This document shows, piece by piece, positions 1,695 through 17,537 of a stretch of DNA of 64,000 bases (position 1 is its first letter; each line of letters opens with the position of its first letter). The notes under the pieces were generated by a model, which was not told the origin of the DNA, searched no databases, and saw only the letters and a program-made list of their open reading frames with translations. Both the position numbers and the translations under genes were made by a program. The DNA is taken from the NCBI GenBank assembly GCA_964615975.1, contig CAZTTH010000008.1:13814-77813 (forward strand). Direction: 5' to 3'. The DNA is from an uncultured Lentisphaerales bacterium (lineage in GTDB: Bacteria > Verrucomicrobiota > Lentisphaeria > JABSQK01 > JAJFLO01).

Positions 1695-2106
1695 TGTGCG
1701 TTTTACCTTGTTGCCAAATTTATCTTACTGAATACCTACTATTTGCGTTTGAGTCAAACTGTCAATTCATCCTGGGAATTCTGCTTGTACTTGAGTCATT
1801 GAATCAACATTCCCCCTCCGCGTCTCGGCGCCTTGGCGTGATGATCATCATCTTTCGAACTGATTGCTATAAAAAAATATTCGTGATCGCGTAATAATTT
1901 GACTGATTACGAATCGGGATACTTAAGAATATGGAATCATTACCTGCTTTCAATAAATATTCAGAAAATCGTTATGGCTTATCATCGTTCCCGAACATCG
2001 GCGCCAGCTCAAACATCGGTATTAATTGTTTTTTTTCGCTGATATGAAATTATTTTTAGGTGATTAATTGTTATCAGCGTATCATCGCATCACCATATCT
2101 ATTATT

Positions 2107-2337
2107 ATGAGGACAACAATAACCATTGATGATGATGTATTTGAAGCAGCTCGAGCGCTGGCGCAAGCATCTGGCATAAGGCTTGGTCAGGCTCTTTCAT
2201 TGCTGGCTCGGCGAGGATTGCGCGTTTCACTCGATAGTGCGAAAAAGCGTGGATTGCCTGTTTTTAAAGTCAACCAGGATGCCAGGATTATCCCAAATGA
2301 TCTCGCCTGTAAAATGATGGCAGAAGAAGCAACGTGA
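2107..2337 (+). CDS. vapB: type II antitoxin, VapB-like
   Basis: The N-terminus MRTTITIDDDVFEAARALA is typical of small VapB-type antitoxins. Its stop lies 13 nt before the PIN gene start. The ATG at 2107 is preferred over the ORF-track start at 2068. Confidence 0.7.
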   Translation: MRTTITIDDDVFEAARALAQASGIRLGQALSLLARRGLRVSLDSAKKRGLPVFKVNQDARIIPNDLACKMMAEEAT

Positions 2338-2349
2338 AAATCAGCCCGA

Positions 2350-2757
2350 TTGGATACGAATGTGGTTCTGGCGTTAGGATGGCTGAATCCTCAAGGTCAG
2401 CATCAGGCACATTTATGGTTTGCAATACAGTCAAAAAACGGCTGGGGCACTTGTGCTTTAACCCAACTTGGTTTTATTCGGCTCTCCGCCAATCCGGCAG
2501 ATACAGAAAGTGCCGTTACTCTCCAAGAAGCTGCTGGTTTGTTAAAACAATGGACCTAACTGAATTCCCATTATTTCTGGGATGCTCCACCAGCAGATAA
2601 TCCAACCATCTTCTCCCGTGCCATAGGGCATCAGCAAATCAATGACGCCTGGTTGGTGGAAGTAGCCCGTCATCACTCAGGAAAGCTGGTCACATTTGAC
2701 CTCCGCCTGTCAGCCCACTCTAGCGAATCAGGGTTGGTCGAGGTAATTGAAACCTGA
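2350..2757 (+). pseudogene. vapC: VapC PIN-domain toxin interrupted by an in-frame TAA at 2557-2559
   Basis: The first half (TTG start, LDTNVVLALGW...GFIRLSANP...LLKQWT) and the second half (HYFWDAPP...INDAWLVEVARHHSGKLVTFD) are in the same frame. Together they give a PIN toxin of about 135 codons, split by one stop codon. Confidence 0.75.
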
Positions 2758-2846: not shown

Positions 2847-3073
2847 CTTCCCCGAATTCCTCGCCCCTGATCGCTGAATTGCCAGTGATCGGCCATGCGC
2901 CCGGATTTGCCAAGGTGATCGAATTTAAGCCCGAATCCAGGTACTCAAAAAGTCCAACCGCGTTACTCAGATGGAGAATCCTTAGGTAAAGTGATTGAAA
3001 ACATCATCAAGCTTGTTAATTTTACCCCCTTCATTGCGAAATTATAATACGACAATCAGGCGATAAAACAGGA

Positions 3074-3640
3074 TTGAATTATCAACTTATGAAACGTCTA
3101 CTATCAGCGCTTAAAGCCTTCTGGCACATCCTTTGCGGTCGCGAAGAGGCTCCCCCTGTCCCGGTTCAACCAGAGTCAGTAAAACCAGCAACTGCTCCGG
3201 CAACACCTGCAGCGGCGATTACCGCCGCATCCAAATCAGCTTCATCGGATAAACATACATTTCAACACGGCGCCATCTATGCCCTGGTGCTGTTGCAACG
3301 GCATGGCCGCCTGATTGATTTTCTTCAGGAAAAGCTGGACGACTACAGCGACGAACAAATCGGCACTGCCGTCCGTCAAATCCATCATGATTGCCAGGTG
3401 GTTTTCACCGAGAATTTTCACCTCCAGCGTATCCTGCCAGAGGAAGAAGGACAGCCCATAAAATTCGAAAAAGCTGTCGACCCTCTGGCAATCAAACTGA
3501 CTGGCGCCATCCCCGCCGCGCCTCCCTACCAGGGGGTGTTGCGTCACAAGGGATGGAAGATTGGTAAAATTCATTTGCCGGAACGGAGCGGGAAAATCGA
3601 TCCCCACATCATTGCCGCCGCGGAAGTGGAAATCGCTTGA
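3074..3640 (+). CDS. DUF2760-like protein
   Basis: GRLIDFLQEKLDDYSDEQIGTAVRQIHHDC and the C-terminal GVLRHKGWK match my recollection of the DUF2760 family, which is usually encoded next to atypical Hsp70 genes. The start is either TTG 3074 or ATG 3089. Confidence 0.65.
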   Translation: MNYQLMKRLLSALKAFWHILCGREEAPPVPVQPESVKPATAPATPAAAITAASKSASSDKHTFQHGAIYALVLLQRHGRLIDFLQEKLDDYSDEQIGTAVRQIHHDCQVVFTENFHLQRILPEEEGQPIKFEKAVDPLAIKLTGAIPAAPPYQGVLRHKGWKIGKIHLPERSGKIDPHIIAAAEVEIA

Positions 3641-3691
3641 ATCGTATCCCGGGATTAAAGGATGATGATGGTGGTATAACTCATAAATAAA

Positions 3692-3790
3692 CCGTTGAAC
3701 TCATTAACCTGCGAACCTTATAACCTATTAACTCTTTAACCTCTTAACACTGAACCCCATTAACCTTTGAACCTTGAACTTTATTAATCC
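3692..3790 (+). repeat. G-poor tract built from reiterated TTAACC / TGAACY words, directly upstream of the Hsp70 gene
   Basis: Read directly: ttgaactcattaacctgcgaaccttataacctattaactctttaacctcttaacactgaaccccattaacctttgaaccttgaactttattaatcc. Confidence 0.6.
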
Positions 3791-3799
3791 CATACCCCC

Positions 3800-5611
3800 A
3801 TGTCACGTTATATCATCGGCATCGATTTAGGCACAACCAATATCGCCATATCCTATCTGGATCTGGAATCCGACACGCCCACAGTGGAACTCTTTTCCGT
3901 CCCCCAACTGGTGGCGCCGGGAGAGATCGATGCGCTTCCACTGCTCCCCTCATTTCTCTATCTCCCGCCCGAGGCGGATGTGGAACGCGGCATTTATGAT
4001 CTGCCGTGGGCAGAGAAACCCCAACATTGTGTTGGCACGTTGGCGCGCAAGAACGGGCCGCTGGCGCCCGGGAAGGTGATTGCTTCGGCCAAATCCTGGC
4101 TGTGCACACCGACCGTCGATCGGCTGGCGCCGATTCTGCCGTGGGGTCAACCTGCGACGGCAGGCAAGATCTCCCCGATTGACGCGACCCGCTATTATCT
4201 CGAGCATCTCAAAGGCGCTTGGAACCAGCATTTTGCCATGGACGATTCCACCCTCGCATTTGAACAGCAAAAAATCATTGTCACCGTGCCCGCCTCCTTC
4301 GATGCCGTGGCCCGGGAATTGACGGTCAAGGCGGCGGAACTGGCAGGATTGACAATTAATTTGCTTGAAGAACCACAGGCGGCGTTTTACGCCTGGCTGC
4401 ATGAGCATGAGAAGAATTGGCGCAAGATGGTGGCGATCGGCAAGCGCATACTGGTCTGCGATATCGGCGGCGGCACCACCGATTTCAGCTTGATTCAGGC
4501 GGTTGACGATAACGGCAGTGTCGGCCTTGAGCGGGTCGCGGTCGGCAATCACATCCTGCTAGGTGGGGACAACCTGGACCTGGCGCTGGCAGTCTATCTT
4601 TCCGAAAAACTCAAACGCGACAAGGGGATCAAGCTCGATCTCAATCAGTTCACCGCCATGACCCATTCCTGCCGAGAAGCCAAGGAGAAGCTGTTCTCGA
4701 GCGCTAAACCGAAACCGCAGAAAATCACCGTGCTGGGACGCGGCAGCAGTGTCATCGGCGGCACGATCACCACGGAACTTACCTTGGAGGAATTGACCAC
4801 GGTGGTGCTGGAGGGATTTTTCCCCCCCTGCGAGCTAAGTGACCAACCGACAACACAAAAGCGACTGGGATTACGCGAATTCGGCTTGAATTACGAGTCC
4901 GATCCGGTGATAACCAAGCATTTGGCGGCGTTTCTTTCCCGGCACTCAGACACGGCGGGGGCCGCCGGCCTGCCAGAGATGATCCTCTTCAACGGCGGCG
5001 TCACCAAAGCCGACAGCATCTGCCAGCGCATCATCGACAACCTGAGAAAATGGCATGGCAACTCTGAAGCCTCGGAAATCACCGTTCTCACCGGCACGGA
5101 TCCCGACACGGCCGTGGCGATCGGCGCCTGCTGGTATGGTCATGTCAGTATTGGCAAAGGCATTCGCATCAAGGCCGGCAGCGCGTTCTCCTATTATGTC
5201 GGGGTGGAATCATCACAACCGGCAATACCCGGATTTCAACCGCCATTGCAGGGACTGTGCGTAGCGCCATTTGGCCTCGAAGAAGGCAGCACTGTCGATA
5301 TTCCCTACACCGGCCTGGGCCTGGTGGTTGGTGAACGCACCGACTTCCAGTTCTTCGCCAGCACTGATCACAAGGAAGATCAATGCGGTACGATCATCGC
5401 CGATGTCGAAGAAGCCGGACTGCACACCCTGCCGGTGCTGACCGCCGAACTGCCGGCGGATGAAGCCACCATCCCTGCCGGCACCCTCCTGCCTATCCGC
5501 CTCAAGACCGTGCTCACCGAAATCGGCACTCTGCAGCTCTGGTGCCTGGAAGAAAACGGCGACCGCCAGTGGCAGCTCGAATACGAACTCCGCGCCCGCG
5601 ACGCGGATTAG
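3800..5611 (+). CDS. Hsp70-family ATPase (non-canonical, HscC/YegD-like) with a divergent C-terminal region
   Basis: IIGIDLGTTNIAIS (phosphate-1), VCDIGGGTTDFSLI (phosphate-2) and LFNGGVTK (adenosine motif). The C-terminal ~200 aa do not resemble the DnaK substrate-binding domain. Confidence 0.85.
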   Translation: MSRYIIGIDLGTTNIAISYLDLESDTPTVELFSVPQLVAPGEIDALPLLPSFLYLPPEADVERGIYDLPWAEKPQHCVGTLARKNGPLAPGKVIASAKSWLCTPTVDRLAPILPWGQPATAGKISPIDATRYYLEHLKGAWNQHFAMDDSTLAFEQQKIIVTVPASFDAVARELTVKAAELAGLTINLLEEPQAAFYAWLHEHEKNWRKMVAIGKRILVCDIGGGTTDFSLIQAVDDNGSVGLERVAVGNHILLGGDNLDLALAVYLSEKLKRDKGIKLDLNQFTAMTHSCREAKEKLFSSAKPKPQKITVLGRGSSVIGGTITTELTLEELTTVVLEGFFPPCELSDQPTTQKRLGLREFGLNYESDPVITKHLAAFLSRHSDTAGAAGLPEMILFNGGVTKADSICQRIIDNLRKWHGNSEASEITVLTGTDPDTAVAIGACWYGHVSIGKGIRIKAGSAFSYYVGVESSQPAIPGFQPPLQGLCVAPFGLEEGSTVDIPYTGLGLVVGERTDFQFFASTDHKEDQCGTIIADVEEAGLHTLPVLTAELPADEATIPAGTLLPIRLKTVLTEIGTLQLWCLEENGDRQWQLEYELRARDAD

Positions 5612-5789
5612 AGTGGATGCAGTTCACCGTTTGGAACAACGCTATCTGGATCACCCAGGATGAAATTTTAATCCATCCAAAAATTTGCTTGGAAAATGAT
5701 AATTTTGCCGTCACCATCTGACTACCATAACAGATATACTGCACATGAATGATGGCTATTCATCTTCCCGTCAGGTTGGGCAAGGCAGC

Positions 5790-7862
5790 TTAAGCTCGTA
5801 AGTCATCCAGGAATTCTGAGGCTGGTTCAATGCCTGTGACCAGTAAATGATCCCTTGCCCGTGTACAAGCGACATAAAGCAAGTGACGTTCAGTGTCGTA
5901 GACCTCTTGCAAATCGGCATCGTCACCGACTGTTTCAATACGTTCCTGTAAGGGGATAATCTCGTCATCACAGGATATCACGGCCACGGCGCGGAATTCA
6001 AGCCCCTTGGCCAGGTGCATGGTGCAGATCGATACATGACCACTGCTCGTCTCGACATGGTCATCGAGGATATTGAATGGCAAACCCGACTCCTTGACTG
6101 CATCTTGAGCTCGTTCCAGTTGCCCTGGTGAACGCACGAAGACGCCGAATTCATGGGGTAGGAGACCGGCTTTCGTGAGCTCGGCAATCCATGTACCAAC
6201 AGAACTTATTTCGTCATTTTCACTCTTGAACACGCGAATGTCGGGTAATGGACCATTGAAGATCGAAATTGTATCGCTCCGATCTTCTCGATTGCCGTCC
6301 ACATCAGTAACTTCCGGACCAAGCAGACGATCAGCTTGCTGGCGGATTTGATGGGATGTGCGATAATTGATTCGCAGCGTGCGGGAACGACCGCGGATAT
6401 CAACACCGAGTGATTTCCAGGAGAAGGGTTGTTGGAAAATACGCTGACCAAGATCACCGGCAAAGAATAAAGCGTTGGAGCGCTCACCACCAAGCACGGC
6501 AAGGAAGCGGAGTTGTGAAACACTGAGATCCTGTGCCTCGTCAACAACTACAAAATCGAAGGGTAGCTTTTTGCTTTCCACCAATGTGGACGACAAGGCA
6601 GTGAAAATCCCCGCATGAGTGGATAACTTCCGCTCTTTCAATCCACTGCTGACCTGCTCAAAGATAGACCAGAGTACCACTCGTCGCTTTTCGGGCAGCC
6701 GGGTTTTGCGGCCAAGGCGGGCTACATCGCGGTAAGACTCCCATGTTTCCAATTGCCACGCATCGACGACTTGTTCCCATTCGGTAACCAGGAAATGCAG
6801 ACTGAACTTGTGATCTCCCACCACTTTCGCCGCGACATTGAGCAATTCCCGCACGATATCACGAGTGGCCAGGTTCACCTTGCCACATTGTGATTTAAAG
6901 AGTCGGAGACCGATGGCATTCAGGGAGTAAACTTCAATGCGTTCGACAAGACGCGGTTCGTTGCCGACCAATCGTTTTAGCTTGGTACGAAGCGCATTTG
7001 CCAGCGTGTCGGAAAAGGTTGTGAGCAGGATGCGGGCATCGGGATAGGCGCGGGCCAGATACACTGCCCGATGCAACGCCACAATCGTCTTTCCGGTTCC
7101 AGCCGATCCTGAAACACGGGATGGTCCATTTTGGTCGCGTTCCACCCATTGACGCTGTTCGGGATGGAGAAAAACAGTCCACTTCTCCCAGGGGAAATCG
7201 AGAGCACATTGAAGCTCTTCGATATTGTTCATCACCCGGAAGCGGCGTTGCGCATCGGGGTGATCAAACGGACTTGCAATCGGCATGGCCGGTTGAATCA
7301 CTCGCGGTTTGCCACCGGTGGCAAGTTCCAGGAGCGCTTCAGCCGCTTCCCCGGGCAGACGTTCCGCTAACAATAACAGGCTGTCTTCATTAACCTGGCG
7401 CACATCATTCAACCATTCTGCCGGCACGCCATAGCCAAGCAGTTCTTCATCGGAATTGGCGGTAAACAGGGGTGGTTTCGGTAGCGCCGGCAATTCCTGT
7501 TGCACATACACTGGTACATAGACCTCCTTCACCGTCTCGCGAATTTCCACGAGCTGAGCCGCCCCCGTCTTGGGATGCGTTTCCAGTTTCCGGCGTTGCG
7601 CCCAATTATAGGCTTTATCGTGGTGATCGACATAACAGAGCATCAAACTGGTACCGGTTTTGTGAACGATGAGCCGAATATCACTGGTTGCTCGAATCGA
7701 CCAGAAGTTGGCATCTTTGGCGCCCTCAATACGATGGCATTGCATCCCGGGATTGAGGGGATTCATCTGCAGGTCAAATGCCGTTGTCTTGACCGCTTTC
7801 TGCTCATCGCCGGTCAGGCGTGCAAGGCTATCGGTGAAGGTGGCGGCAATGCGGAAGTTCAT
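5790..7862 (-). CDS. SF1 UvrD/Rep-like helicase with an N-terminal RelE/ParE-like domain
   Basis: Helicase motifs: GSAGTGKT (I), VVVDEAQDLS (II), FFAGDLGQRIF (III), INYRTS (IV), TMHLAKGLEFRAV (V) and LLYVACTRARDHL (VI). The GAGGA Shine-Dalgarno sits about 7 nt upstream of the ATG. The first ~95 aa (FWSIRATSDIRLIVHKTG..LMLCYVDHHDKAY) look toxin-fold-like. Confidence 0.85.
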   Translation of the reverse strand: MNFRIAATFTDSLARLTGDEQKAVKTTAFDLQMNPLNPGMQCHRIEGAKDANFWSIRATSDIRLIVHKTGTSLMLCYVDHHDKAYNWAQRRKLETHPKTGAAQLVEIRETVKEVYVPVYVQQELPALPKPPLFTANSDEELLGYGVPAEWLNDVRQVNEDSLLLLAERLPGEAAEALLELATGGKPRVIQPAMPIASPFDHPDAQRRFRVMNNIEELQCALDFPWEKWTVFLHPEQRQWVERDQNGPSRVSGSAGTGKTIVALHRAVYLARAYPDARILLTTFSDTLANALRTKLKRLVGNEPRLVERIEVYSLNAIGLRLFKSQCGKVNLATRDIVRELLNVAAKVVGDHKFSLHFLVTEWEQVVDAWQLETWESYRDVARLGRKTRLPEKRRVVLWSIFEQVSSGLKERKLSTHAGIFTALSSTLVESKKLPFDFVVVDEAQDLSVSQLRFLAVLGGERSNALFFAGDLGQRIFQQPFSWKSLGVDIRGRSRTLRINYRTSHQIRQQADRLLGPEVTDVDGNREDRSDTISIFNGPLPDIRVFKSENDEISSVGTWIAELTKAGLLPHEFGVFVRSPGQLERAQDAVKESGLPFNILDDHVETSSGHVSICTMHLAKGLEFRAVAVISCDDEIIPLQERIETVGDDADLQEVYDTERHLLYVACTRARDHLLVTGIEPASEFLDDLRA

Positions 7863-7932
7863 GAACTTTCCTCACCCGTCACTTACAATCGTTTTCAGTT
7901 TTCATCTCAGGATATCCTCGATATAACTCGGA

Positions 7933-8361
7933 TCATTTAGCATAATGGCATTCCATAACAGTATCGGCGATCAGTTGTGCTATAGTCAGATTATCTTGAT
8001 GAGAAATCCCATGAATTCCGCTATGAGACGGATCATTGTCTTCAGGTTCATGAATGAACTGCAACTGACGCGAATCATTCGATTCATTTTTTACAAAATT
8101 CCTGGTGTTTCCAACATTCACCACTGCAAACATACCCGTTGATGCCACATTGAATTTTTTAGCAAAAATTCGTCTTACTTCTTCAATTTCTTGAACACGA
8201 GAAGTTTTCTTGAGATATTCCAGCCAATTCACGGACAGATAAGTTTCATCATCTCGAAGCATGAATGAGGCACCGGTTGGTAGTCCAGTGGAAGGTGAAA
8301 GACTCCGAGGTTTACAATATCTTGAAACGTGATCGGAATCCTGGATAATGTCATTTCTCAT
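7933..8361 (-). CDS. hypothetical protein (142 aa), last gene of a three-gene operon
   Basis: The ORF overlaps the upstream gene by 11 nt. I recognise no family. The conserved-looking C-terminal HEPEDNDPSHSGIHGI may be catalytic. Confidence 0.55.
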   Translation of the reverse strand: MRNDIIQDSDHVSRYCKPRSLSPSTGLPTGASFMLRDDETYLSVNWLEYLKKTSRVQEIEEVRRIFAKKFNVASTGMFAVVNVGNTRNFVKNESNDSRQLQFIHEPEDNDPSHSGIHGISHQDNLTIAQLIADTVMECHYAK

Positions 8362-9067
8362 TGATCGTCGTCCATCGTTCTGTATTGAAGGGCGTTATGA
8401 GTTGACGAAAATCTTTCATGCCACATTTTCCTGAATTCCTAATTATTCCGTCCTGAGACGGAGAAAATATCAAATAATTAAGGTTATAATCCGAAAGAAA
8501 CTCAATGGTCAGATTTCGGGATTTATCTTTGCGCCATTGACAGATAATTGTCCCATTAGGGGATGCCATAATGTCAGGATGACAAAGGTCTTTATTCTGG
8601 GATAAAAATCGCAAGCAAGCGCCGACAGATGTTGCACTTAATTTCGTTTCCTCTAGATCTTCGGCGAGAAGGTCATTCAATTCTGTAATGCGAGCCAGCA
8701 CTTCATCTTTCTTTAACAGTGTTCGGCTTGAAAGGCGAAAGTCTATTAATGTTGCTCGAACTTTGTCATATTCTGACCTTATATCTCCTAAAATAGCCAT
8801 GGAAGTATTTTCCGAGGATTCGATTTCAGCTATGATTGCTTTGTCCTCTGGGCAAACACTCAAATAGATCATGGGTGTAAAATAATTCCGCGGTTTGATA
8901 GATGAGAACGAGGTTTTGGGGTTGAGAGATGATTCCCACTGGGCAAGAATTGAATAATCCGTTTGTCTTCGAGATAACAACAATGATTGTACTTGATATT
9001 CATCTTGATCGAATAGTGCTTCGCGGGTTAAGTCAAAATCATCCTTGTATGCGACTGCGGCAGTCAT
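8351..9067 (-). CDS. hypothetical protein (238 aa), middle gene of a three-gene operon
   Basis: An ATGA start/stop overlap with the upstream gene (9064-9067) indicates translational coupling. No recognisable motif. Confidence 0.55.
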   Translation of the reverse strand: MTAAVAYKDDFDLTREALFDQDEYQVQSLLLSRRQTDYSILAQWESSLNPKTSFSSIKPRNYFTPMIYLSVCPEDKAIIAEIESSENTSMAILGDIRSEYDKVRATLIDFRLSSRTLLKKDEVLARITELNDLLAEDLEETKLSATSVGACLRFLSQNKDLCHPDIMASPNGTIICQWRKDKSRNLTIEFLSDYNLNYLIFSPSQDGIIRNSGKCGMKDFRQLITPFNTERWTTINEK

Positions 9068-9858
9068 TTATCCTTCCTCCCCCAGAATTTTTTTTGGATA
9101 TTAATATCAGTAAAATCGCAAAATCCATAAACAATCCATTCATGCGCCAGGTCAAACCACTCCTCCATACGCTTATAACTGACGTCTCCACCCAAACCTT
9201 TAGCTGATAATTCGAGAATGTAAATAGGACTACCGTCCGTTTGTCTTTGACTAAAGCTCAAGCTTACCGTCAGTCGTCCAAAATCTTCAGGTAATGTAAA
9301 GATACCTCTCCATGCGTTTGATTCTGGTCCCGGCAGGAATCGGTCTTCATTTCGCCAAATCAAATCGGGGGCGAAATTTCCAACTTCTGCCGGCGTTTGC
9401 CATATGTCACCTATAGGTATGTGGTTGATGTAAGACAGTTCGCATTTCTGAATGTTGGGCTTGGGTATTTCTTGTTCGGAGAGAAAGGTACAAAATTCCT
9501 TAAGTTGATTCCAAAATTCGTTAATGACATTGGAATATCGCGGATAGGTTTCGTCACCTGTGATCCGCCGCCAATTAAACACGAAACAATTTCTCTGAAT
9601 TTGGATCAGCGATGTTTGGGTTGAGTTCAATAACCAAACACGCGGCCATGGCAGATCGTTCTCTGGGTCTAATGGTAAAAGTGGTTGTGCATGTTCACAA
9701 TGGGGATATCGCTCCTGAATTCTATCCCAATAACGTCCAATATGAGGAAGTTTGAATCCCGCCAATGATTTAAAATAAACACCAGCCACCACCTCATTGA
9801 TAGGCGGAGTTTCAAAATCCGGTAATTGTGTTTGTATGTCTTTTTTGTTTTTCTTCAT
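9064..9858 (-). CDS. TIGR04255-like uncharacterised protein (264 aa), first gene of a three-gene operon
   Basis: The N-terminal PPINEVVAGVYF, the length and the overall pattern resemble the TIGR04255 family as I recall it. Assigned from memory, not from a search. Confidence 0.55.
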   Translation of the reverse strand: MKKNKKDIQTQLPDFETPPINEVVAGVYFKSLAGFKLPHIGRYWDRIQERYPHCEHAQPLLPLDPENDLPWPRVWLLNSTQTSLIQIQRNCFVFNWRRITGDETYPRYSNVINEFWNQLKEFCTFLSEQEIPKPNIQKCELSYINHIPIGDIWQTPAEVGNFAPDLIWRNEDRFLPGPESNAWRGIFTLPEDFGRLTVSLSFSQRQTDGSPIYILELSAKGLGGDVSYKRMEEWFDLAHEWIVYGFCDFTDINIQKKFWGRKDK

Positions 9859-9969
9859 TGATTTATCCTTATGTTTTTGGGTCTAACCAATTTCATATAT
9901 AACATTAACAAAATTAAGATAGACAATTCAATCCGTCTGAGGTCTGTATTTTACCCACACTGACCAAAA

Positions 9970-10125
9970 TCACCTGTCCTTTGCCCTGTCGAGTTTATAG
10001 AAGATCAGTGCCAATCTTGCCAGGTTAACCTGCAAATCAAATGCTGTCGTCTGAACTGCTTTCTGCTCATCGCCAGTCAGGCGTGCAAGGCTATCGGTGA
10101 AGGTGGCGGCGATACGGAATTCCAT
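9970..10125 (-). pseudogene. 5' fragment of a second, diverged helicase allele (N-terminal 33 codons, then unrelated sequence and a stop)
   Basis: nt 10030-10125 align without gaps to nt 7767-7862, with 84/96 identical by hand count. It translates to MEFRIAATFTDSLARLTGDEQKAVQTTAFDLQV, versus MNFRIAATFTDSLARLTGDEQKAVKTTAFDLQM in the helicase. Confidence 0.85.
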
Positions 10126-10242
10126 TTCTTATTTCTAAACTTATTTATTTTATTTATAAATTTTTATTTTCAAAACAAGCGTTTTTGCAATGAGTTATGA
10201 TTTTCTTATAAATATTTTTTTATTAAAATCGCTGTTTTATTT

Positions 10243-11898
10243 CTAAATAAGATGCCATTTCGGGTATTTTCGCGATCCTTCATTCCGGATTAAGTCCTCC
10301 CTTGCCATCGACTGAATCAGGTTAGTTACTTTGTTACGTTTCCGATCATCATCCAGGACATCAGATAATTTGCTGAATAAGAGCTTATCGATATCCTGGC
10401 GTGTGGCATGGCCATACTTCCGAATGAATTCCAGAATCATCTGCTTGTAATGTGCATCGTCGAAAGCGCGGTTTTTTATATACTGTGCTTTATCTCCAGT
10501 GGCCGAGGCGATATGCGCTGCCACGTATAGATTGGGATAACGGCCTTCAATAAGTTTATCATTTCGTAGCATATTCGCTTCATCTTTGGATACTGCTTGT
10601 CGTTTCTGAATTCGGTCTAATAAAATCACTTTGCTCAGCGGCAAATCTTTCTGATCCATAAGCATGACGGTGTAATTAGGGTCAATCACCTGGCCATGTA
10701 TGGTTACGATTACTTTACCCGGTGTCGATAGATTGAAATCGGGTAACGGATAAAATCGCTTGCGTTGCTCCTGGAACATCCGTCGAATGCCATATCCCAT
10801 GGTATCGATCATATTCACATTCACCATGGCGTCTGCGAGAAAACGATTACGATAGCGCTCTGGGGTCTTTTCCCGCAACGTATAATCCTCAAGCCCACCT
10901 TCGAAAAAATCTCCCGCACTCTCAAATACCAAACGATCAGGTCGCTCCGCGACAATTATCCGCGCTTGCTGGCGGTAATCCTGATGGGCAATCGCATTAT
11001 GCATTGCTTCCAGTACCACCCATTTTTCATACTTGGGGACTTCAAATGGAACCAGTTGACCGGGGACATCAAGCTTTTGCATGGTATTACGAATCCGGGC
11101 ATAACATTCACTGGTAGTCAGGAGAAATGGCGGACTGAAGTGTTCGTATGCCTGTTCCGTTCCTTCCAGTTTCCAGGTGATTTGCGCTACTGCCGGTTCC
11201 AGATGATAAGCCGCTTCTTCTCGCCCCAGCAACAGCAGACATGCACGGGTAATCGCGCCGTTCTTTGTCAATTTGGCTTTATCCAGCAATGTCGTATTCG
11301 ACCATGAATCAATCTCTCCGGCAAAGTACTTGTTTCGATTTTTATCACGAAAGTTCCGCCGAGCCGCCACGATTGCCTCCGAATTCAAGTCGTCAATAGT
11401 GGCTTGTGAACAGATTTCTGCTGACCAATCATCAAGCACTGCTTGTGACCGAATCTGCTCCAACTCATGAAGACTTAAGGCGACCAGCGACTCCCCATCG
11501 CGACCATACCAATGCCCTTTGAAGGAGACCGGCAACCCGGGCGGCGCCGCGGGAACCTGAAACATAATGACCCGGCCAGCGGCATGATACGCAATGTGAA
11601 TATCGATAAAACTCATGCGATTGGTTTGATTGGCAATTTCATGTTTAAGGCTATTCAAATAGTCTGCTTTGTCGCGATAACGACTCCCACAAATGCTCCG
11701 ATCATCATTGGCGATGCCGAACACCAGCCAGCCACAGGGTTGATGCTTGAGGTTTGCTTCATTCGCCAACGCTGAAAAATATTGCCCCAGTTTATCGAAG
11801 GAGAAATCATTTTTCGCTTCTTTGAACTCCACCCATTCCGTTTCATGGGGAAGCTGTCGTAGTTCATCAAGTTTATCAAGTAATTGCTGATTCGTCAT
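10243..11898 (-). CDS. AlbA_2/Schlafen-like (divergent AAA) DNA/RNA-binding protein with a RecG-C-terminal-like ATPase/wHTH region
   Basis: ETEWVEFKEAKNDFSFDKLGQYFSALANE is the hallmark N-terminus of the AlbA_2 family. The start overlaps the mod stop by 4 nt. Confidence 0.75.
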   Translation of the reverse strand: MTNQQLLDKLDELRQLPHETEWVEFKEAKNDFSFDKLGQYFSALANEANLKHQPCGWLVFGIANDDRSICGSRYRDKADYLNSLKHEIANQTNRMSFIDIHIAYHAAGRVIMFQVPAAPPGLPVSFKGHWYGRDGESLVALSLHELEQIRSQAVLDDWSAEICSQATIDDLNSEAIVAARRNFRDKNRNKYFAGEIDSWSNTTLLDKAKLTKNGAITRACLLLLGREEAAYHLEPAVAQITWKLEGTEQAYEHFSPPFLLTTSECYARIRNTMQKLDVPGQLVPFEVPKYEKWVVLEAMHNAIAHQDYRQQARIIVAERPDRLVFESAGDFFEGGLEDYTLREKTPERYRNRFLADAMVNVNMIDTMGYGIRRMFQEQRKRFYPLPDFNLSTPGKVIVTIHGQVIDPNYTVMLMDQKDLPLSKVILLDRIQKRQAVSKDEANMLRNDKLIEGRYPNLYVAAHIASATGDKAQYIKNRAFDDAHYKQMILEFIRKYGHATRQDIDKLLFSKLSDVLDDDRKRNKVTNLIQSMAREDLIRNEGSRKYPKWHLI

Positions 11899-14800
11899 GG
11901 GTTCACCCGGAATACCTTCATTACCTCGTCTCCAAGATGGTTGATTACTTTGATGGCGATGCGGCCGGACTTCGGCTTCTCGAATGGGCGGGAGGTGTCA
12001 CTGTTCAGAGTGGCCCAGGCGTCGGCGTTGATCTCGGCTTTGAGAGTGGTCTTGAGGGCGCTGTAGGGATCGTTGGCGCCAAGGAAATATGCATGGCGGA
12101 CAAAGAAGCTTTCTTCATTGTAATCGGTGTCGATGAACCAGCAGGCAATGCCATCGGTATTGCAGCTTTCTACTTCACCGGTTTGGGGTTTGAAGACATC
12201 CACTCCATTTACAGTGACCTGGAAATAGTGGCGAGTGGTCAGGGGAGAGTGGATAGCGATTTGATCAATGCGTTTAGCATTTTGTTGATCTTGGCACAAT
12301 TGTTCAATAAGTTTTCGCAGTCCTTCCTGGAAAGAAGTTCCAGCCTTTCGGACAAGATCAGAAAGGTTTCCAACTCCGCCAGCGATCCCCGCGCAATGCC
12401 AAGCGATTGTAGAAACTCCCCCGTGCTCCTGCGGGCCTGCCCTTCGGCGATGTTTGCCGGGACGGAGGTCACTGCCCGTCGCATTTGTGATGTAATCCCA
12501 TATCTCTCGGCGGCAGGAAAGCTGCGCGTAATCGCGTAGGTCTGCACCGCCAAGTCGATTGATTTCTGCCAGACTATTAACTCCCGATATGAGCTTATAG
12601 ATTTCATAAGGTGCTATTCTCCTTTCTGAACTATCCACTAACCACTCTTCACTTGCCACTTCAATATCAGGTTCCCCGAATATCACAAACAAGTTGCCTT
12701 TGCCGGTGTTCTTGAGATCTTCAGCCATGTGGAGGTCGGCGTTCATGCGGGCTTTGAGCACTGGGATGCGGCCCAGCTTCTTGAATTCGGTGGTGTGCGC
12801 TTCGTAGTTAAAAGCGCAGACGATCAAGACATCAAACCCGGCATCGCCGGCTTCGCGGGCGGCGGCGACGAGATCGGCGCGCTGGACGGTGCCGAACTCG
12901 GGGCCGATGAAGATTCCAGCACGGATTTCCGTGCCGGAATCAGTGGATAGTGAGGAGTGGTTAATGGCATATTTTTCTTGTTGATCACCCTTCACTAACC
13001 ACTCACCACTTGCTTCAAACCGCCCTTCGGCGCAGACCAATTCGCCCGGCCAGGGAACCAACGAGGTGAAAGTGATCCGATCCTCCTTGTGCGCCTGCTG
13101 CACCCCTGCGGTCTTGAGGTTTTCCAGAACCATCTGGGGGAATGACTGCTTTCCATATTCGACACCGCCTTCCAACATGGTGTCGATCAATTCGTCGTCC
13201 TCGTCGACCCCGAGCACACGATGAGGTGAAAGACTCTCCACGGTGAAGGGACCGGCGACGCGGACTGTCTTCTTGTCCTCATAGGGTTTGTCGTAGAGAT
13301 ATTCGACATCAGCCTTGGCGGAAATCGACGCATCAATTTCCTTTTGGCGGGCAATTCGTTTGTGCCACCAGTCGGAATGCAGCTTCAGAATGTGGGACAG
13401 ACATTCTTGTCTGTCTTTAGGGGGGAGTTTGGCGGTGGAAGAAGCAGACAGGAATGTCTGCTCCACACTGGCAGATTCGCGCGGAATTTCCCATTCTTCC
13501 CATTTCATATTAAGCGCGGTATTGAGCTCTGCTCGAAGAAATTCCAGCTCTGGTTGGAATTTCTCCCAGATAACATCGATCTCGGCGTTGTTGGCGATGG
13601 ACTTGAGCGTGATGTGTGGCACACGTTCATAGACGAAGCCGTGGCGGATGTTCCCCTGCACCGGTTGCGAACTTGGGGCGGTGCGAGTGACTTCGGCTTC
13701 CTTGAGCTGACCTTCAATGGAATCGACTAGTAGGTAAAAGGGATACCGTGCGCCCATGATGCGAGCACGGGCCAATGCCAGCGCCACGCGTGAGGTGTCG
13801 ATCGTGATCCAACGGCGCCCCCATTGCTCGGCGACGGTGGCGGTGGTACCAGAACCGCAGGTCGGGTCAAGTACGAGGTCACCGGGATCGGTGGCCAAGA
13901 GAAGGCATCGTTTTATTGCTTCTGTAGCAGTCTGAACGACAAAAATCTTTGGATCTGCACGGCTTTGAATGCCCCCGATATCATCCCAGACGTTTGAAAG
14001 TGTATGAACGGGAAAATCTTCAATGTAGCGAACGTAATTTAATATCTGCTTGCTCGGAGAAATACGATTTGCCAATTCGAGTCTGGCCATGCCATTGGGT
14101 GTTGTCTTCCAACTGCCTTGGTGTTCGCAGTTTCGTAGTGTCACTAACACTACTGGGTTTGCTTCTGACGTTGTCTTGTCGAGACGGAAAATTCGTGACG
14201 CGGGCGGGAAGGCATCAGGGAATTTTTCACTCGCTTGTTTTAGTGTAATTCTTGTTCCATCTGGTAGTTCGACTCCGTTGTATTTTGTGCCGCCATGTTC
14301 TCCTGGTCTCTTCTCGGCGTACAGATGCCGTGCTTTCGCATGGGTCTTATGCTTTGCGAACCAGAGAATGAAATCGCATTTGTTATTCACGAAGTCTTGA
14401 ACAAGACCTCCTGTCTTTACGAATGTGATTTGGCTGACACAATTCTCTTCTCCGAAGACCTCATCCATCACTGCCCGGACACGGTGAACATTTTCATCGC
14501 CGATCTGGACGAAGATGGAGCCGGAATCTGTTAACAAGTCACGGGCCACTGTCAACCGGTCCCGCAGGTAGGTAAGGTAGCTATGGATGCCTTCGCGCCA
14601 GGTATCGCGAAAGGCTTTAACTTGTTCGGGTTCACGTGTAATATGATCAACCTTGCCGTCCTTCACATCACGGCTGGTGGTGGACCACTGGAAATTGCTA
14701 TTGAACTTGATGCCATAAGGCGGATCGATATAGATGCACTGCACCTTGCCGCGCAACCCCTCGCGCTCGGCCAGGCTGGCCATGACCTGGAGGGAGTCGC

Positions 14801-15230
14801 CGAGGATCATGCGGTTGGACCAATTCTGATCGTGTTGATAGAACTCAGTCTTGTCCACGCCCTGAGGAATGCCATTAAAATCCGCGAATAAGTCTGGCTG
14901 CCACGATTCGGTGGAGTGATTAGTGGATAGTGAAGAGTGGCGCAGTAGATCGTCAATCAATACCTTGGGGTGAATTTTCTCCTGAATGTATAACGGCGGG
15001 GCATGGACAACGAGATCGCTCCAGTCCTGTTCATCCTTGCCGCGCCAAACGAGTTGGGGATCGAGATCGGTGTTGCGGGGATAACGCACCTGCTTGGGGT
15101 TCTGCTGCTCCTTCTCCAGCACCGACTGGTATTCGGCGGTGGGAATGTTCTTGCGCGTCGCGTCGTCGTGCTTGAGTGTTTCGACTGTCTTGGTTTTATT
15201 GTTTGCATTGGCCATGTTATTAAATCCCAA
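11895..15230 (-). CDS. mod: type III-like N6-adenine DNA methyltransferase (Mod), 1111 codons including several in-frame insertions
   Basis: IYIDPPYGIKFNSNFQ (motif IV, DPPY), LVLDPTCGSGTTATVAEQWGRRWITID (motif I), and the conserved C-terminus CWFIDTDYNEESFFVRHAYFLG...IAIKVINHLGDEVMKVF. Confidence 0.85.
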   Translation of the reverse strand: MGFNNMANANNKTKTVETLKHDDATRKNIPTAEYQSVLEKEQQNPKQVRYPRNTDLDPQLVWRGKDEQDWSDLVVHAPPLYIQEKIHPKVLIDDLLRHSSLSTNHSTESWQPDLFADFNGIPQGVDKTEFYQHDQNWSNRMILGDSLQVMASLAEREGLRGKVQCIYIDPPYGIKFNSNFQWSTTSRDVKDGKVDHITREPEQVKAFRDTWREGIHSYLTYLRDRLTVARDLLTDSGSIFVQIGDENVHRVRAVMDEVFGEENCVSQITFVKTGGLVQDFVNNKCDFILWFAKHKTHAKARHLYAEKRPGEHGGTKYNGVELPDGTRITLKQASEKFPDAFPPASRIFRLDKTTSEANPVVLVTLRNCEHQGSWKTTPNGMARLELANRISPSKQILNYVRYIEDFPVHTLSNVWDDIGGIQSRADPKIFVVQTATEAIKRCLLLATDPGDLVLDPTCGSGTTATVAEQWGRRWITIDTSRVALALARARIMGARYPFYLLVDSIEGQLKEAEVTRTAPSSQPVQGNIRHGFVYERVPHITLKSIANNAEIDVIWEKFQPELEFLRAELNTALNMKWEEWEIPRESASVEQTFLSASSTAKLPPKDRQECLSHILKLHSDWWHKRIARQKEIDASISAKADVEYLYDKPYEDKKTVRVAGPFTVESLSPHRVLGVDEDDELIDTMLEGGVEYGKQSFPQMVLENLKTAGVQQAHKEDRITFTSLVPWPGELVCAEGRFEASGEWLVKGDQQEKYAINHSSLSTDSGTEIRAGIFIGPEFGTVQRADLVAAAREAGDAGFDVLIVCAFNYEAHTTEFKKLGRIPVLKARMNADLHMAEDLKNTGKGNLFVIFGEPDIEVASEEWLVDSSERRIAPYEIYKLISGVNSLAEINRLGGADLRDYAQLSCRREIWDYITNATGSDLRPGKHRRRAGPQEHGGVSTIAWHCAGIAGGVGNLSDLVRKAGTSFQEGLRKLIEQLCQDQQNAKRIDQIAIHSPLTTRHYFQVTVNGVDVFKPQTGEVESCNTDGIACWFIDTDYNEESFFVRHAYFLGANDPYSALKTTLKAEINADAWATLNSDTSRPFEKPKSGRIAIKVINHLGDEVMKVFRVNP
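12227..12660 (-). mobile_element. IVS-like cassette inside mod: a four-helix-bundle gene bounded by 30-nt imperfect inverted repeats
   Basis: The arms at 12227-12256 (agtggcgagtggtcaggggagagtggatag) and 12631-12660 (ctatccactaaccactcttcacttgccact) are reverse-complementary at 23/30 positions by hand count. They enclose the ORF 12239-12607. Confidence 0.55.
12239..12607 (-). CDS. four-helix-bundle protein (23S rRNA intervening-sequence protein / Avd-like family), nested in mod in a different frame
   Basis: YRELIVWQKSIDLAVQTYAITRSFPAAERYGITSQMRRAVTSVPANIAEGQAR...GSLAELETFLILS is the classic family signature. It has its own AAGGAG Shine-Dalgarno about 11 nt upstream of the ATG. Confidence 0.8.
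   Translation of the reverse strand: MKSISSYRELIVWQKSIDLAVQTYAITRSFPAAERYGITSQMRRAVTSVPANIAEGQARRSTGEFLQSLGIARGSLAELETFLILSERLELLSRKDCENLLNNCAKINKMLNALIKSLSTLP
12942..13013. repeat. 'empty' hairpin made of the same AGTGG/CCACT arm family, in frame within mod
   Basis: agtggatagtgaggagtggttaatgg, a ~19-nt loop, then ttcactaaccactcaccacttgc. The right arm is near-identical to 12636-12657. Confidence 0.6.
13396..13461. repeat. pair of short perfect palindromic hairpins inside mod coding sequence
   Basis: GACAGACA-ttct-TGTCTGTC (13396-13415) and GCAGACA-ggaa-TGTCTGC (13444-13461). Same hairpin family as 15410-15429. Confidence 0.7.
14911..14940. repeat. solo arm of the AGTGG repeat family within the 5' part of mod
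   Basis: gtggagtgattagtggatagtgaagagtgg. The stretch agtggatagtgaagagtgg matches 12942-12960 at 18/19. Confidence 0.55.
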
Positions 15231-15331
15231 AATCAGGTTGTTGTCTACATTTATTCGGCCCGCTAATCACGCAAAACACACGAATGTTCAGTTCTCAGTT
15301 AAGAATGAAGGCTGATTTGCTTGGATTGAAT

Positions 15332-15365
15332 ATTCGTGTCGTTCGTCTGATTCGTGGTTAAATTT
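15332..15365 (+). repeat. three 9-nt direct repeats (ATTCGTGTC GTTCGTCTG ATTCGTGGT) followed by TAAATTT
   Basis: Read directly. It is related to 26662-26718, with the same ATYCGTGT start and GATYCGTGGTTAAATTT end. Confidence 0.6.
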
Positions 15366-15376
15366 GAACGGTGGTG

Positions 15377-15436
15377 AACGGAGGGCGGGTTTTCCAACCC
15401 GCCAAACAAGGCGGACAGGAATGTCCGCCCTCCGTT
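15377..15436. repeat. REP-like double-hairpin element with an alternative 12-bp outer stem
   Basis: GGCGGGTT-ttcc-AACCCGCC (15384-15403) and GGCGGACA-ggaa-TGTCCGCC (15410-15429). The outer stem AACGGAGGGCGG (15377-15388) pairs perfectly with CCGCCCTCCGTT (15425-15436). Confidence 0.7.
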
Positions 15437-15473
15437 ATCCTCAAAATCGATACCTGAGTTGTTACAATATATT

Positions 15474-15707
15474 TTATATTTTGCCATCGCGTTTCAATTC
15501 GATAATCATGTCCTCAAACGAAACTAATGGTTCATCCGCGCGCATATCGAAGGCGGCTAAATCCTCTGTATCCTCCGCCAGCGACAATATTACCGCTTCA
15601 TTAACGAGGTCGGACATCGATCTTGATGTATCAATGGACTTTTGCTGTAATGCTTTATGAATATCCGGTTTTAGGTAAATAGTGGAACGTTTTGATAATA
15701 CTGTCAT
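15474..15707 (-). CDS. ribbon-helix-helix (CopG/ParD-like) antitoxin, now orphaned
   Basis: STIYLKPDIHKALQQKSIDTSRSMSDLVNEAVILSLAEDTEDLAAFDMRADEP is typical of RHH antitoxins that pair with RelE/ParE toxins. Confidence 0.65.
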   Translation of the reverse strand: MTVLSKRSTIYLKPDIHKALQQKSIDTSRSMSDLVNEAVILSLAEDTEDLAAFDMRADEPLVSFEDMIIELKRDGKI

Positions 15708-15777
15708 ATGATAACCTCCATGATTTTATTGATTGAACAATTATAACGTTACATTACCAATCGTGGAATGAAAAATT

Positions 15778-16350
15778 TCAAACTGCCAATCGGTCAGTGA
15801 CTACATCATCGATCATCTTGTTGAACTCGGCTTCAACCTTTTTAGTAAAATCCGCCTCGATCTGATAAACCATGCGTTCGCTCGCCCGGATTTCGCAGAC
15901 CTCTTCAAGCAGTTCCTCGAAGTATCGCCGGTCGAAACGAGTGCCGTGTTTAAAGCGGTCGGAATCGATAGCGAAACCTTTGAGGATGTAGTCCTTTAAC
16001 CGATCGGTAGCCCAGGTACGAAATTGGGTCGCTCGCACGCTTTTGACGCGATACCCAACAGCTATGATCGCTTCGAGGCTGTAAAGCTTCGTACGATACT
16101 GCTTGCCATCAGCGGCAGTTACCGAGGATTCCTCGGTAACTGCTGATTCGATTAGTTCTTGATCGGCGAAAATATTCTTTAAATGCAAGGAGATATTGTC
16201 GGTGGAACACTCATAAAGTTCGGCTATGAGTTTCTGGGTGAGCCAAACATTTTCGTTCTCGAAGCGAACTTCAACGCGAGCCCGCCCATCTTCACTTGCG
16301 AAGATGGTGATATTGTCGATGCGTATAGGTTGCGAATTTTTAGACATCAT
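15778..16350 (-). CDS. RhuM-family protein, truncated and fused to a Res-type C-terminal tail
   Basis: The RhuM core is LYSLEAIIAVGYRVKSVRATQFRTWATDRLKDYILKGFAIDSDRF...EIRASERMVYQ. The last ~25 aa (IEADFTKKVEAEFNKMI) are homologous to the Res C-terminus (IEADFSKKVKFEFDRML). Confidence 0.75.
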   Translation of the reverse strand: MMSKNSQPIRIDNITIFASEDGRARVEVRFENENVWLTQKLIAELYECSTDNISLHLKNIFADQELIESAVTEESSVTAADGKQYRTKLYSLEAIIAVGYRVKSVRATQFRTWATDRLKDYILKGFAIDSDRFKHGTRFDRRYFEELLEEVCEIRASERMVYQIEADFTKKVEAEFNKMIDDVVTDRLAV

Positions 16351-17435
16351 TAACTTCCTTCCTGCATGGATTCTCTGGTCAAAATAGCATTCAAGGCGGT
16401 GTTAATGTAGTAATTAGTCCGCCCTATTTTTTGTTTTTTAAGGAAGCCGCCGCCGGTCAACGCATCGAGATATTTGGTGGCGGTGAGGCGCGACACCTTC
16501 AGATCACGTTCGACGAATTCGATCTTGGTATAGGGGTGGGTAAACAGGTTATTGATCAGATCCTGACTGTAAAACTTGTACTCCGCGCGAATACGGTGCT
16601 TCGCATCCATCAACGCCGCATTAATGGCATGGATGGTTTCGATGGCATCACCGGCGGTTGATTCAATGGCGGTAAGCAGGTAAAGCACCCACTCTTCCCA
16701 TGCATCGTTTTCGCGAACACTCTGAAGCAGTCGATAATAATCCGGTTTGGTGCGGACGATGTGGCGGCTGAGATATAGCACCGGGATATCGAGCAGACCT
16801 TCCTTCACCAAGTAAAGCACATTAACGATGCGGCCGGTGCGGCCATTGCCATCATAGAACGGGTGGATACTTTCAAACTGGTGATGGATCAACGCCATTT
16901 TAATGAGCGGGTCAGCGGCAAATAAATCACGATCATTGATGAAACGCTCAAGATCGCGCATGAGCGCGATAATGGTATCTGGATCTTGCGGCGGCATATA
17001 GATCGCCTGACCAGAGCCATCTTTCAACACAGTCCCTGGCAGTTTGCGGAAACCGGCGTTGTTTTGCTCCAGCTCTACCTGAATCTGAATGATATGGTTG
17101 ATGGTAAGCAGACCACTTTGTTGCACTAGATCGAATCCAACCCGTAAAGCCTGGCGATACCGTAGTACCTCCTTGGCGGCGCCATGGTGCAAGTTCTCGG
17201 GAAAAAGGTCATCTTTATATAATTCGTCATGAGTGGTCACGATGTTTTCTATGGCCGAACTATCCTTGGCCTCCTGTATTCCCAGAGTGTTGATGAGTAT
17301 CCCCTGGTTAGGAATGGAGGCGGCGACTCCCTTGAGTTCAGCTAGTTTACGACTTGTTAAAGCCAATTTTTTAAGGATAACGGGAGTATCGAATCTTATC
17401 GACGGCAAACGATCTAATGGCAGAATGGTGGTCAT
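16350..17435 (-). CDS. Fic-family protein (AMPylase/adenylyltransferase type) with a C-terminal wHTH
   Basis: Fic motif HPFYDGNGRTGR. The stop overlaps the rhuM start. Confidence 0.9.
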   Translation of the reverse strand: MTTILPLDRLPSIRFDTPVILKKLALTSRKLAELKGVAASIPNQGILINTLGIQEAKDSSAIENIVTTHDELYKDDLFPENLHHGAAKEVLRYRQALRVGFDLVQQSGLLTINHIIQIQVELEQNNAGFRKLPGTVLKDGSGQAIYMPPQDPDTIIALMRDLERFINDRDLFAADPLIKMALIHHQFESIHPFYDGNGRTGRIVNVLYLVKEGLLDIPVLYLSRHIVRTKPDYYRLLQSVRENDAWEEWVLYLLTAIESTAGDAIETIHAINAALMDAKHRIRAEYKFYSQDLINNLFTHPYTKIEFVERDLKVSRLTATKYLDALTGGGFLKKQKIGRTNYYINTALNAILTRESMQEGS

Positions 17436-17458
17436 GTTATCCCCTTAACCCCTTGTCG

Positions 17459-17529
17459 ATATGTATATAAAAATAGCGTTTTCTATACATATGGCGCACA
17501 ATGTGTATAGGATATGGCAAGATTGTATA
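17459..17529. promoter_or_regulatory. putative operator array upstream of fic: four TGTATA/TATACA hexamers at 20-22-bp spacing
   Basis: A perfect inverted repeat, ATATGTATA (17459-17467) and TATACATAT (17484-17492), is separated by a 16-nt spacer. Further TGTATA hexamers lie at 17504-17509 and 17524-17529. Confidence 0.4.
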
Positions 17530-17537
17530 CGGATTAT

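Follow-up and report, generated by a model that had tools for sequence, protein, structure and literature searches.

Hsp70 biology rests on Hsp70 together with a J-protein and an exchange factor. In Escherichia coli, the Hsp70 proteins HscC and HscA also have J-domain protein partners, namely the membrane-anchored co-chaperones DjlB and DjlC in the case of HscC and HscB in the case of HscA, while residues R167, N170 and T173 of DnaK dock the J-domain. CnuD of the CoCoNuT systems combines Hsp70-like domains, in which the ATPase motifs are degenerate, with HEAT-like repeats and occurs with McrBC-type genes (PMC11090510). In Myxococcus xanthus, the Hsp70-like protein StkA of 540 amino acids (aa) regulates exopolysaccharide and its gene is followed by SCP2-like and PhaE-like genes (PMC4319316), and deletion of the gene for MXAN_5323, a non-canonical Hsp70 of 925 aa, lowered sporulation and oxidative resistance (PMC8265645). 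Here we analysed a stretch of 64,000 nucleotides (nt) from an uncultured Lentisphaerales bacterium (assembly GCA_964615975.1, contig CAZTTH010000008.1, positions 13,814 to 77,813 of the forward strand; hereafter called the window), in which a gene for a DUF2760 protein is followed by a gene for a short Hsp70-family ATPase. A widespread and self-contained Hsp70-type module appears to have been split here by a rearrangement that left these two genes, its first two cistrons, together.

A scan with the DUF2760 profile over one genome per species yielded at least 555 relatives, and the best 80 loci were examined. Loci were classified by phmmer, and in 54 of them the sequence continues for 5 kb or more beyond DUF2760 on its downstream side. 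The usual unit is a triad consisting of DUF2760, a short Hsp70 of ~600 aa and a long Hsp70 of ~900–970 aa with a C-terminal DUF3731, present in 37 of the 54 loci. DUF2760 and the short Hsp70 were joined by a HEAT-repeat protein of ~288 aa in three loci and stood by themselves in four; DUF2760 was accompanied only by the long Hsp70 in two, only by the HEAT-repeat protein in two, and was alone in six. The last group belongs chiefly to the Victivallales and Lentisphaeria, where L005, L007, L009, L012, L015 and L018 have DUF2760 without an Hsp70 gene within 10 kb. A gene for a J-domain protein lies ~5 kb off in L015 and L018. The HEAT-repeat third gene (PF13646) comes from Desulfobacterota and Thermodesulfatator loci (L041, 12463–13329; also L028, L042, L045, L052, L054, L057, L059 and L061), and six further loci with shorter flanks have this variant. 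No homology between the HEAT-repeat protein and DUF3731 was detected by hhalign (probability 0.1%).

The long and the short Hsp70 are paralogues with 35–38% identity over ~600 aa; the long one has in addition a Trp/Arg-rich DUF3731 of ~320 aa, for which no relative was found among the solved structures. In at least 18 of 68 loci, the DUF2760 gene overlaps or directly adjoins the Hsp70 gene that comes next, and no J-domain or GrpE gene was found in any triad locus. The phyla in which members of the family occur include Lentisphaerota, Verrucomicrobiota, Desulfobacterota, Myxococcota, Chloroflexota, Nitrospirota, Planctomycetota and Pseudomonadota; in RefSeq-type annotation of the latter the triad is seen on a Comamonadaceae megaplasmid and on a conjugative plasmid of Bradyrhizobium. 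In the closest relatives, the short Hsp70 is 58–60% identical to that of the window, which in turn shares 35–38% identity with the long paralogues. Six loci of the PVC clade (L001, L004, L006, L085, L086 and L087) carry DUF2760, the short Hsp70, the long Hsp70, an FHA protein and a metallo-β-lactamase (MBL)-fold protein, while L002 has the triad without the FHA or MBL gene. The FHA protein (~150 aa) and the MBL-fold hydrolase (~300 aa, with a weak Apyc1-like match) are encoded at 14837–16209 in L001, 13333–14679 in L085, 13065–14420 in L086 and 12923–14268 in L087. The presence of these genes after the triad suggests a possible connection with phospho-threonine signalling.

The window shares the first feature of the triad, DUF2760 directly upstream of an orthologous ~600-aa Hsp70 on the same strand. 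An original prediction, made from the DNA sequence alone, had described a conserved and atypical DUF2760–Hsp70 pairing for which no function was established. The survey bears out this pairing across many phyla, and neither DUF2760 nor DUF3731 is mentioned in the literature searched, where a query on non-canonical bacterial Hsp70 proteins likewise yielded no relevant work. Its description as a pair holds in so far as the adjacency is conserved, but the unit usually comprises three genes and the third is missing from the window.

The upstream open reading frame (ORF) extends from TTG 3074 to 3640, which gives the 188 aa first assigned to it. ATG 3089 is the probable start and gives a product of 183 aa, which has the same sequence as the database protein P0121. 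Its assignment to DUF2760, initially a likeness only, was confirmed by the profile search, which gave a match to PF10816 at E=1.6e-41 (141.5 bits vs a gathering cutoff of 25) covering profile positions 4–124 of 124. The protein has an N-terminal amphipathic helix (aa 2–16), a disordered Pro/Ala-rich linker (~aa 17–60) and a conserved α/β domain (aa 61–183) with the motifs LLQRxGRLIDFLQE and GxLRHKGW and the C-terminal end AEVE[IV]; its AlphaFold2 model reached a predicted local distance difference test score (pLDDT) of 78. All 19 family-invariant alignment columns are kept. The family amounts to 2,140 clusters when a library of 1.84 billion representatives is grouped at 50% identity, and the conserved domain invariably forms the very C-terminal part of the protein. 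One to three N-terminal transmembrane segments are predicted in 105 of 186 DUF2760 representatives and the remainder have a conserved short amphipathic helix. DUF2760 has no sequence relative among the solved structures, the fold search returned no fold match, and there was no signal of similarity to J-domain, HscB or GrpE.

The second gene encodes an Hsp70-family ATPase of 603 aa, as had been proposed, identical to the database protein P0001. Its match to PF00012 (71 bits vs a cutoff of 20.6) is limited to aa 156–345, and the profile, the phosphate-1, phosphate-2 and adenosine motifs and the catalytic residues place it in the Hsp70 superfamily. In contrast, the NCBIfam cutoffs are missed by a wide margin both for DnaK (NF001413, 76 bits vs 648; TIGR02350, 73 vs 823) and for HscA (TIGR01991, 74 bits vs 708–709). 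The nucleotide-binding motifs are intact, as originally noted: all eight catalytic and allosteric positions D8, K70, P143, R151, E171, D194, T199 and D201 are present when mapped onto a DnaK reference sequence, which has the expected residues at the known catalytic positions. The same eight positions are kept in 59 short and 43 long homologues, with the exceptions of one gapped sequence per set at D8 and one R151K among the short ones. Every alignment-invariant residue, in well over 100 columns, is present in the window protein.

The residues at the J-domain docking positions are different. At the equivalents of R167, N170 and T173 the window protein has N, E and Q, and the family has T (or N), an invariant E, and Q or L; the VLLL of the DnaK linker is replaced by [IV]-R-[IV]-[RK]. 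In the AlphaFold2 model (mean pLDDT 87), the nucleotide-binding domain (NBD) extends to ~aa 450 and is followed by 8–9 β-strands, without an α-helical lid or C-terminal helices. A profile of 30 homologues matched the NBDs of solved DnaK and Hsc70 and nothing beyond residue ~450, and hhalign of the C-terminal domain against the substrate-binding domain of the same E. coli DnaK sequence gave no signal. At the structural level, 399 and 437 residues could be superposed on BiP and Sse1, respectively, which are full-length Hsp70 and Hsp110 in the ATP state, vs 340–347 for the NBD alone, and the best 50 Foldseek matches of the model were all chains with a β substrate-binding domain. These comparisons give moderate support to a divergent, lid-less β substrate-binding domain, with the fold taken from the model. 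The original description of the C-terminal ~200 aa as unlike DnaK is thus right with regard to sequence and lid, whereas the region has ~150 aa and a fold resembling the β substrate-binding domain. Searches of the six-frame translation of the 64-kb window by phmmer with J-domain, GrpE and HscB queries from E. coli returned no match at E≤1, in agreement with the earlier statement that no DnaJ or GrpE partner is nearby. Because the curated cutoffs are not reached, the lid is missing and the J-docking residues are not kept, the protein stands outside the DnaK and HscA families; the whole resembles a specialised Hsp70 system.

A promoter-like site precedes the pair (Table 1). It was found in a consensus scan in which 10 of 12 positions match, a consensus match that does not by itself imply function. 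Most of the 159-nt spacer between the DUF2760 gene and hsp70 is occupied by a degenerate 8-nt tandem array, for which Tandem Repeats Finder reported a period of 8/16; this phased AAC pattern is the single occurrence in 64 kb, with 0 expected over 100 shuffles. A shorter, GAAC-phased spacer lies at the equivalent place in another Lentisphaerae locus (L017). The GC content at third codon positions is 0.69 in hsp70 vs 0.48–0.58 in housekeeping genes; it was set aside as a sign of transfer, since the adjacent hemH also has 0.64.

The operon stops after the short Hsp70. In the closest relatives, the long DUF3731 Hsp70 starts 20–600 nt past the stop codon of the short one. In the 64-kb window, tblastn found no trace of the C-terminal domain of the long Hsp70 or of the FHA and MBL genes, and a hidden Markov model of the DUF3731 region gave no match. 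A HEAT protein encoded at 60633–62219 of the window was rejected, as it gave a generic repeat match only. When the search for the long Hsp70 was extended beyond the window with a DUF3731 query, the full-length protein of the query itself was not recovered.

Comparison with a sister genome suggests how this arrangement arose. At its locus (L085), the complete operon of five genes lies 2.4 kb downstream of SIS-dnaN-recF-alaX; it reads in the same direction as dnaN, recF and alaX, and no defence genes are present. The four anchor genes were located in the window by tblastn (Table 1), where the pair lies ~17 kb from the alaX-like gene in the opposite orientation, with a defence island in the gap. 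The ahpC, long Hsp70, FHA, MBL, aminotransferase and tyrS genes of L085 have no counterpart in the 64-kb window. Origin-proximal genes (dnaN, recF, gyrB and gyrA) are found at 22371–48405; no dnaA was found next to dnaN in the window, and the cumulative GC skew has its minimum at ~10–12 kb, within the defence island. The simplest reading, drawn from this one sister genome, is that an inversion or insertion took place and that one of the breakpoints lies right after the short Hsp70, in the interval 5612–5789. A rearrangement beside the origin-proximal dnaN-recF-alaX block would have inverted DUF2760 and the short Hsp70 and split them from the remaining operon, and the defence island would now occupy the rearrangement junction, with both remaining genes intact. 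Had the inversion involved a larger segment, the long Hsp70 could sit just upstream of the start of the window. In this reading, the module adjoins the defence island through a local rearrangement and is not a defence system; the proximity is incidental, and next to these anchors in the sister genome the operon is not accompanied by defence genes.

With regard to function, the module is probably a membrane-tethered, J-protein-independent Hsp70 machine. In the mechanism that we propose, DUF2760 would be a membrane-associated adaptor or co-chaperone, held by its amphipathic helix or by transmembrane helices, and its long flexible linker would present the conserved domain, which would bind and regulate the short Hsp70 in place of a J-domain protein. 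Alternatively, DUF2760 might be a client of the short Hsp70. The short Hsp70 would cycle ATP, with the client held in the lid-less β domain. By analogy with Hsp110 or Ssz1, the long paralogue may be a heterodimeric partner that promotes nucleotide exchange or acts as a holdase, and DUF3731 may serve in targeting or binding. One may speculate that the invariant basic RHKGW motif of DUF2760 contacts the invariant glutamate at the position of DnaK N170, and that the invariant AEVE[IV] tail is recognised by a helical third component. This mechanism finds support in the catalytic and allosteric residues kept by both paralogues, the altered J-docking residues, the lack of a J-domain or GrpE gene in the window and in the triad loci, the N-terminal transmembrane or amphipathic helices of DUF2760, the C-terminal position of its domain and the overlapping genes. 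A step further, the module may represent a distinct and undescribed bacterial class of Hsp70, with no J-protein or GrpE, DUF2760 as a membrane tether, a heterodimer of two active paralogues as a bacterial counterpart of Hsp70–Hsp110, and a dedicated membrane-proximal client; we regard this as possible but doubtful.

Several observations weigh against the split Hsp70 module as outlined here. Co-operonic order is the sole link between its proteins, and the third gene is sometimes that of a HEAT-repeat protein without homology to DUF3731. DUF2760 is alone in several Lentisphaerota genomes, hence the components may not strictly depend on one another. In which direction the rearrangement went and in what order its steps took place is deduced from a single sister genome with ~60% protein identity, and the search for the long Hsp70 covers the 64-kb window of a 105-kb contig. 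Defence-type genes, moreover, stand just downstream of the module at a second locus, L017. Taking these points into account, we assign a probability of about 0.65 to the explanation as a whole, i.e. the first two cistrons of a split Hsp70-type module together with the proposed mechanism. Its two parts differ: the identity and genomic context are very likely correct, and the mechanism is a tentative suggestion that may well turn out otherwise.

The original prediction had considered, from the location of the pair, that a role in conflict or stress systems was worth testing. Understood as part of a conflict or anti-phage system, the pair would be functionally tied to the neighbouring toxin–antitoxin, helicase and restriction–modification genes. 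These neighbours are indeed there, with the qualification that the PIN toxin gene is broken by an in-frame TAA, and the pair directly adjoins a genuine defence island; yet it is convergent with the island genes and not co-oriented. Hsp70-like domains are known from the CoCoNuT restriction systems (PMC11090510), and PADLOC matched the Hsp70 weakly to the candidate PDC-M61B (E=8e-7, 26 bits), but this match spans just 87 residues of the NBD, and no match to DUF2760 was found in PADLOC-DB 2.0. For the genomic contexts, two flanking genes, the closest ones, were collected to the left and two to the right of the module in 32 loci sharing no neighbour families, a small sample of 126 proteins evaluated without a formal background model. 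No Pfam family occurred in more than two of these proteins. The flanking genes are of the housekeeping kind, such as those for cysteinyl-tRNA synthetase, phosphoglucose isomerase, trehalose-phosphate synthase, dihydrodipicolinate synthase, NifU/IscS, an aminotransferase, MlaE, permeases and RNase II. Each PADLOC family matched at E≤1e-10 was hit by one protein, mostly by generic look-alikes (DinG, the IscS-like SspA/DndA, sigma-54 activators). The only strong defence-type neighbour was in L017 (Lentisphaerae GWF2_38_69, 15193–19962), where an HKD+Snf2 gene (PADLOC C3a139, E=1.8e-130) comes after the triad and a gene similar to the Schlafen/AlbA_2 gene of the window comes next; this speaks for a defence role, and the other 31 loci speak against it. 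DUF2760 was found in none of 50,697 phage records, in none of 2.9 million IMG/VR viral contigs and in 11 of 72,556 plasmids, mostly replicons of chromid size. Judged by PADLOC matches and by recurrent location in islands or on mobile elements, the module does not belong to a defence system. The conflict hypothesis was to be given up if the pair lay in core-genome contexts, and this is what the housekeeping flanks and the sister operon beside dnaN-recF-alaX show. An anti-phage function is therefore largely refuted and has, in our view, hardly any chance of being correct.

Another explanation is that the operon lost its function when it was broken and that the pair is a remnant in decay. The lack of the third gene, FHA and MBL in the window would fit, as would the VapC pseudogene next door and the unusually long spacer filled with a repeat array. 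Decay is difficult to reconcile with two full-length ORFs in which all family-invariant residues are kept, nor does one expect it where a promoter-like site precedes the genes. Furthermore, at least four other genomes have pair-only loci and the components are often unlinked in Lentisphaerota, so that a partner may be encoded elsewhere; we consider a remnant unlikely. It could also be argued that the short Hsp70 is an ordinary auxiliary DnaK paralogue that uses the housekeeping DnaJ and GrpE, and that DUF2760 is an unrelated neighbour. The Hsp70 fold and the intact catalytic and allosteric residues are what such a paralogue would have, and deletions of non-canonical Hsp70 genes in M. xanthus had only mild sporulation and oxidative-stress phenotypes (PMC8265645), with MXAN_5323 as a putative member of this family. 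This idea does not account for DUF2760 adjoining, at the majority of loci, an Hsp70 of the same clade whose gene often overlaps with its own, and the protein has no α-helical lid, does not conserve the J-domain docking residues and scores far below both the DnaK and the HscA family cutoffs. An auxiliary DnaK is thus quite improbable, and the split Hsp70-type module is retained as the best explanation.

Table 1. Features of the window discussed in the text, with positions counted from its first nucleotide
Feature	Position	Strand	Remarks
VapB-like antitoxin gene	2068–2337	+	VapB_antitoxin E=4e-4, below Pfam cutoff
PIN/VapC toxin gene	2350–2757	+	in-frame TAA at 2557–2559
Promoter-like site	3021–3048	+	TTTACC, 16-nt spacer, TATAAT; ~40 nt 5′ of the DUF2760 start codon
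DUF2760 gene	3089–3640	+	183 aa (probable start); Pfam PF10816, alignment, AlphaFold2 model
Degenerate 8-nt tandem array	3690–3783	+	~12 units, AAC every 8 nt; between DUF2760 and hsp70
Short Hsp70-family ATPase gene	3800–5611	+	603 aa; NBD ~aa 1–450; predicted lid-less all-β domain ~aa 455–600
Junction where the operon stops	5612–5789	.	convergent helicase gene follows instead of long Hsp70
Defence island	5790–20654	-	~15 kb; Pfam and PADLOC
Type III methylase gene	11895–15230		
RhuM (PDC-S05)	15778–16350		
SoFic	16350–17435		
Type III restriction enzyme gene	17538–20654		
alaX-like gene	22371–24143 (tblastn match 22377–24140)	-	65% identity to L085 (tblastn)
recF	24887–25987 (tblastn match 24902–25987)	-	37% identity to L085 (tblastn)
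dnaN	28463–29557 (tblastn match 28466–29557)	-	60% identity to L085 (tblastn)
SIS	29935–30531		54% identity to L085 (tblastn)

Upstream of the pair, the read-through translation of the PIN/VapC gene matched the PIN family with 30.3 bits vs a cutoff of 23.6; because of the in-frame TAA, the toxin looks inactivated on the basis of its reading frame. The defence island downstream contains a NERD/UvrD-type helicase, three low-GC ORFs, a Schlafen/AlbA_2 ATPase, a type III methylase, RhuM, SoFic and a type III restriction enzyme, and PADLOC reported C3a187, MTase_III (1355 bits), PDC-S05 (RhuM) and SoFic. RhuM and SoFic are nested between the methylase and restriction genes of one restriction–modification operon. 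The three low-GC ORFs (7933–9858; GC 0.39–0.42) have no family match and are flanked by a 101-nt direct repeat with 86% identity (7762–7862 and 10025–10125); the NERD/UvrD helicase gene has one of the two copies as its 5′ end. They look like a cassette that was inserted with target duplication. No tRNA genes or convincing terminal repeats marking the ends of the island were found.

Both DUF families are already catalogued and the genes are labelled in genome annotation; as a system, they are an uncharacterised variant of the Hsp70 machine. If the proposed mechanism is true, a widespread bacterial Hsp70 system would replace both co-chaperones by a membrane-tethered protein and a second Hsp70 paralogue. 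The module is testable in culturable hosts of the triad, e.g. Burkholderia or Bradyrhizobium. The instance in the window is an incomplete copy and of modest interest alone, while the family deserves experimental attention. It also illustrates that little can be concluded from a defence island lying next to a gene pair in a single genome; here, the comparison with a sister genome explained the adjacency as a rearrangement junction.

Compared with known systems, the module resembles DnaK-DnaJ-GrpE in the actin/Hsp70-fold NBD with the full set of catalytic and allosteric residues and in the β-rich domain after it. It differs in that its Hsp70 is 15–24% identical to the solved Hsp70 structures found in fold searches, lacks the lid, has changed linker and J-docking residues and is not linked to a J-domain or GrpE gene. 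With HscC-DjlB/DjlC and HscA-HscB it shares a specialised, non-heat-shock Hsp70 beside its own small partner, which in the case of HscC is membrane-anchored as well; unlike these partners, DUF2760 has no J-domain or HscB similarity, and the score for the HscA family is not reached. CoCoNuT CnuD and PDC-M61B likewise combine an Hsp70-like ATPase with a helical or HEAT-type part, comparable to the HEAT third gene in some Desulfobacterota loci, but the ATPase motifs of the module are intact, McrBC, HEPN or other CoCoNuT parts are missing and the contexts are not defence islands. StkA is also a non-heat-shock Hsp70 homologue in a small operon with non-chaperone genes; it was rejected as a known homologue, as the operon content differs (no DUF2760 or DUF3731). 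The length of MXAN_5323 fits the long Hsp70 of the module, of which it may be an example. With the eukaryotic Hsp70–Hsp110 (Sse1) and the ribosome-associated Ssz1–Zuo1 complex the module has in common that two Hsp70 paralogues of unequal length appear to act together; in contrast to these pairs, both paralogues of the module keep full catalytic sets and the long one carries the unrelated DUF3731.

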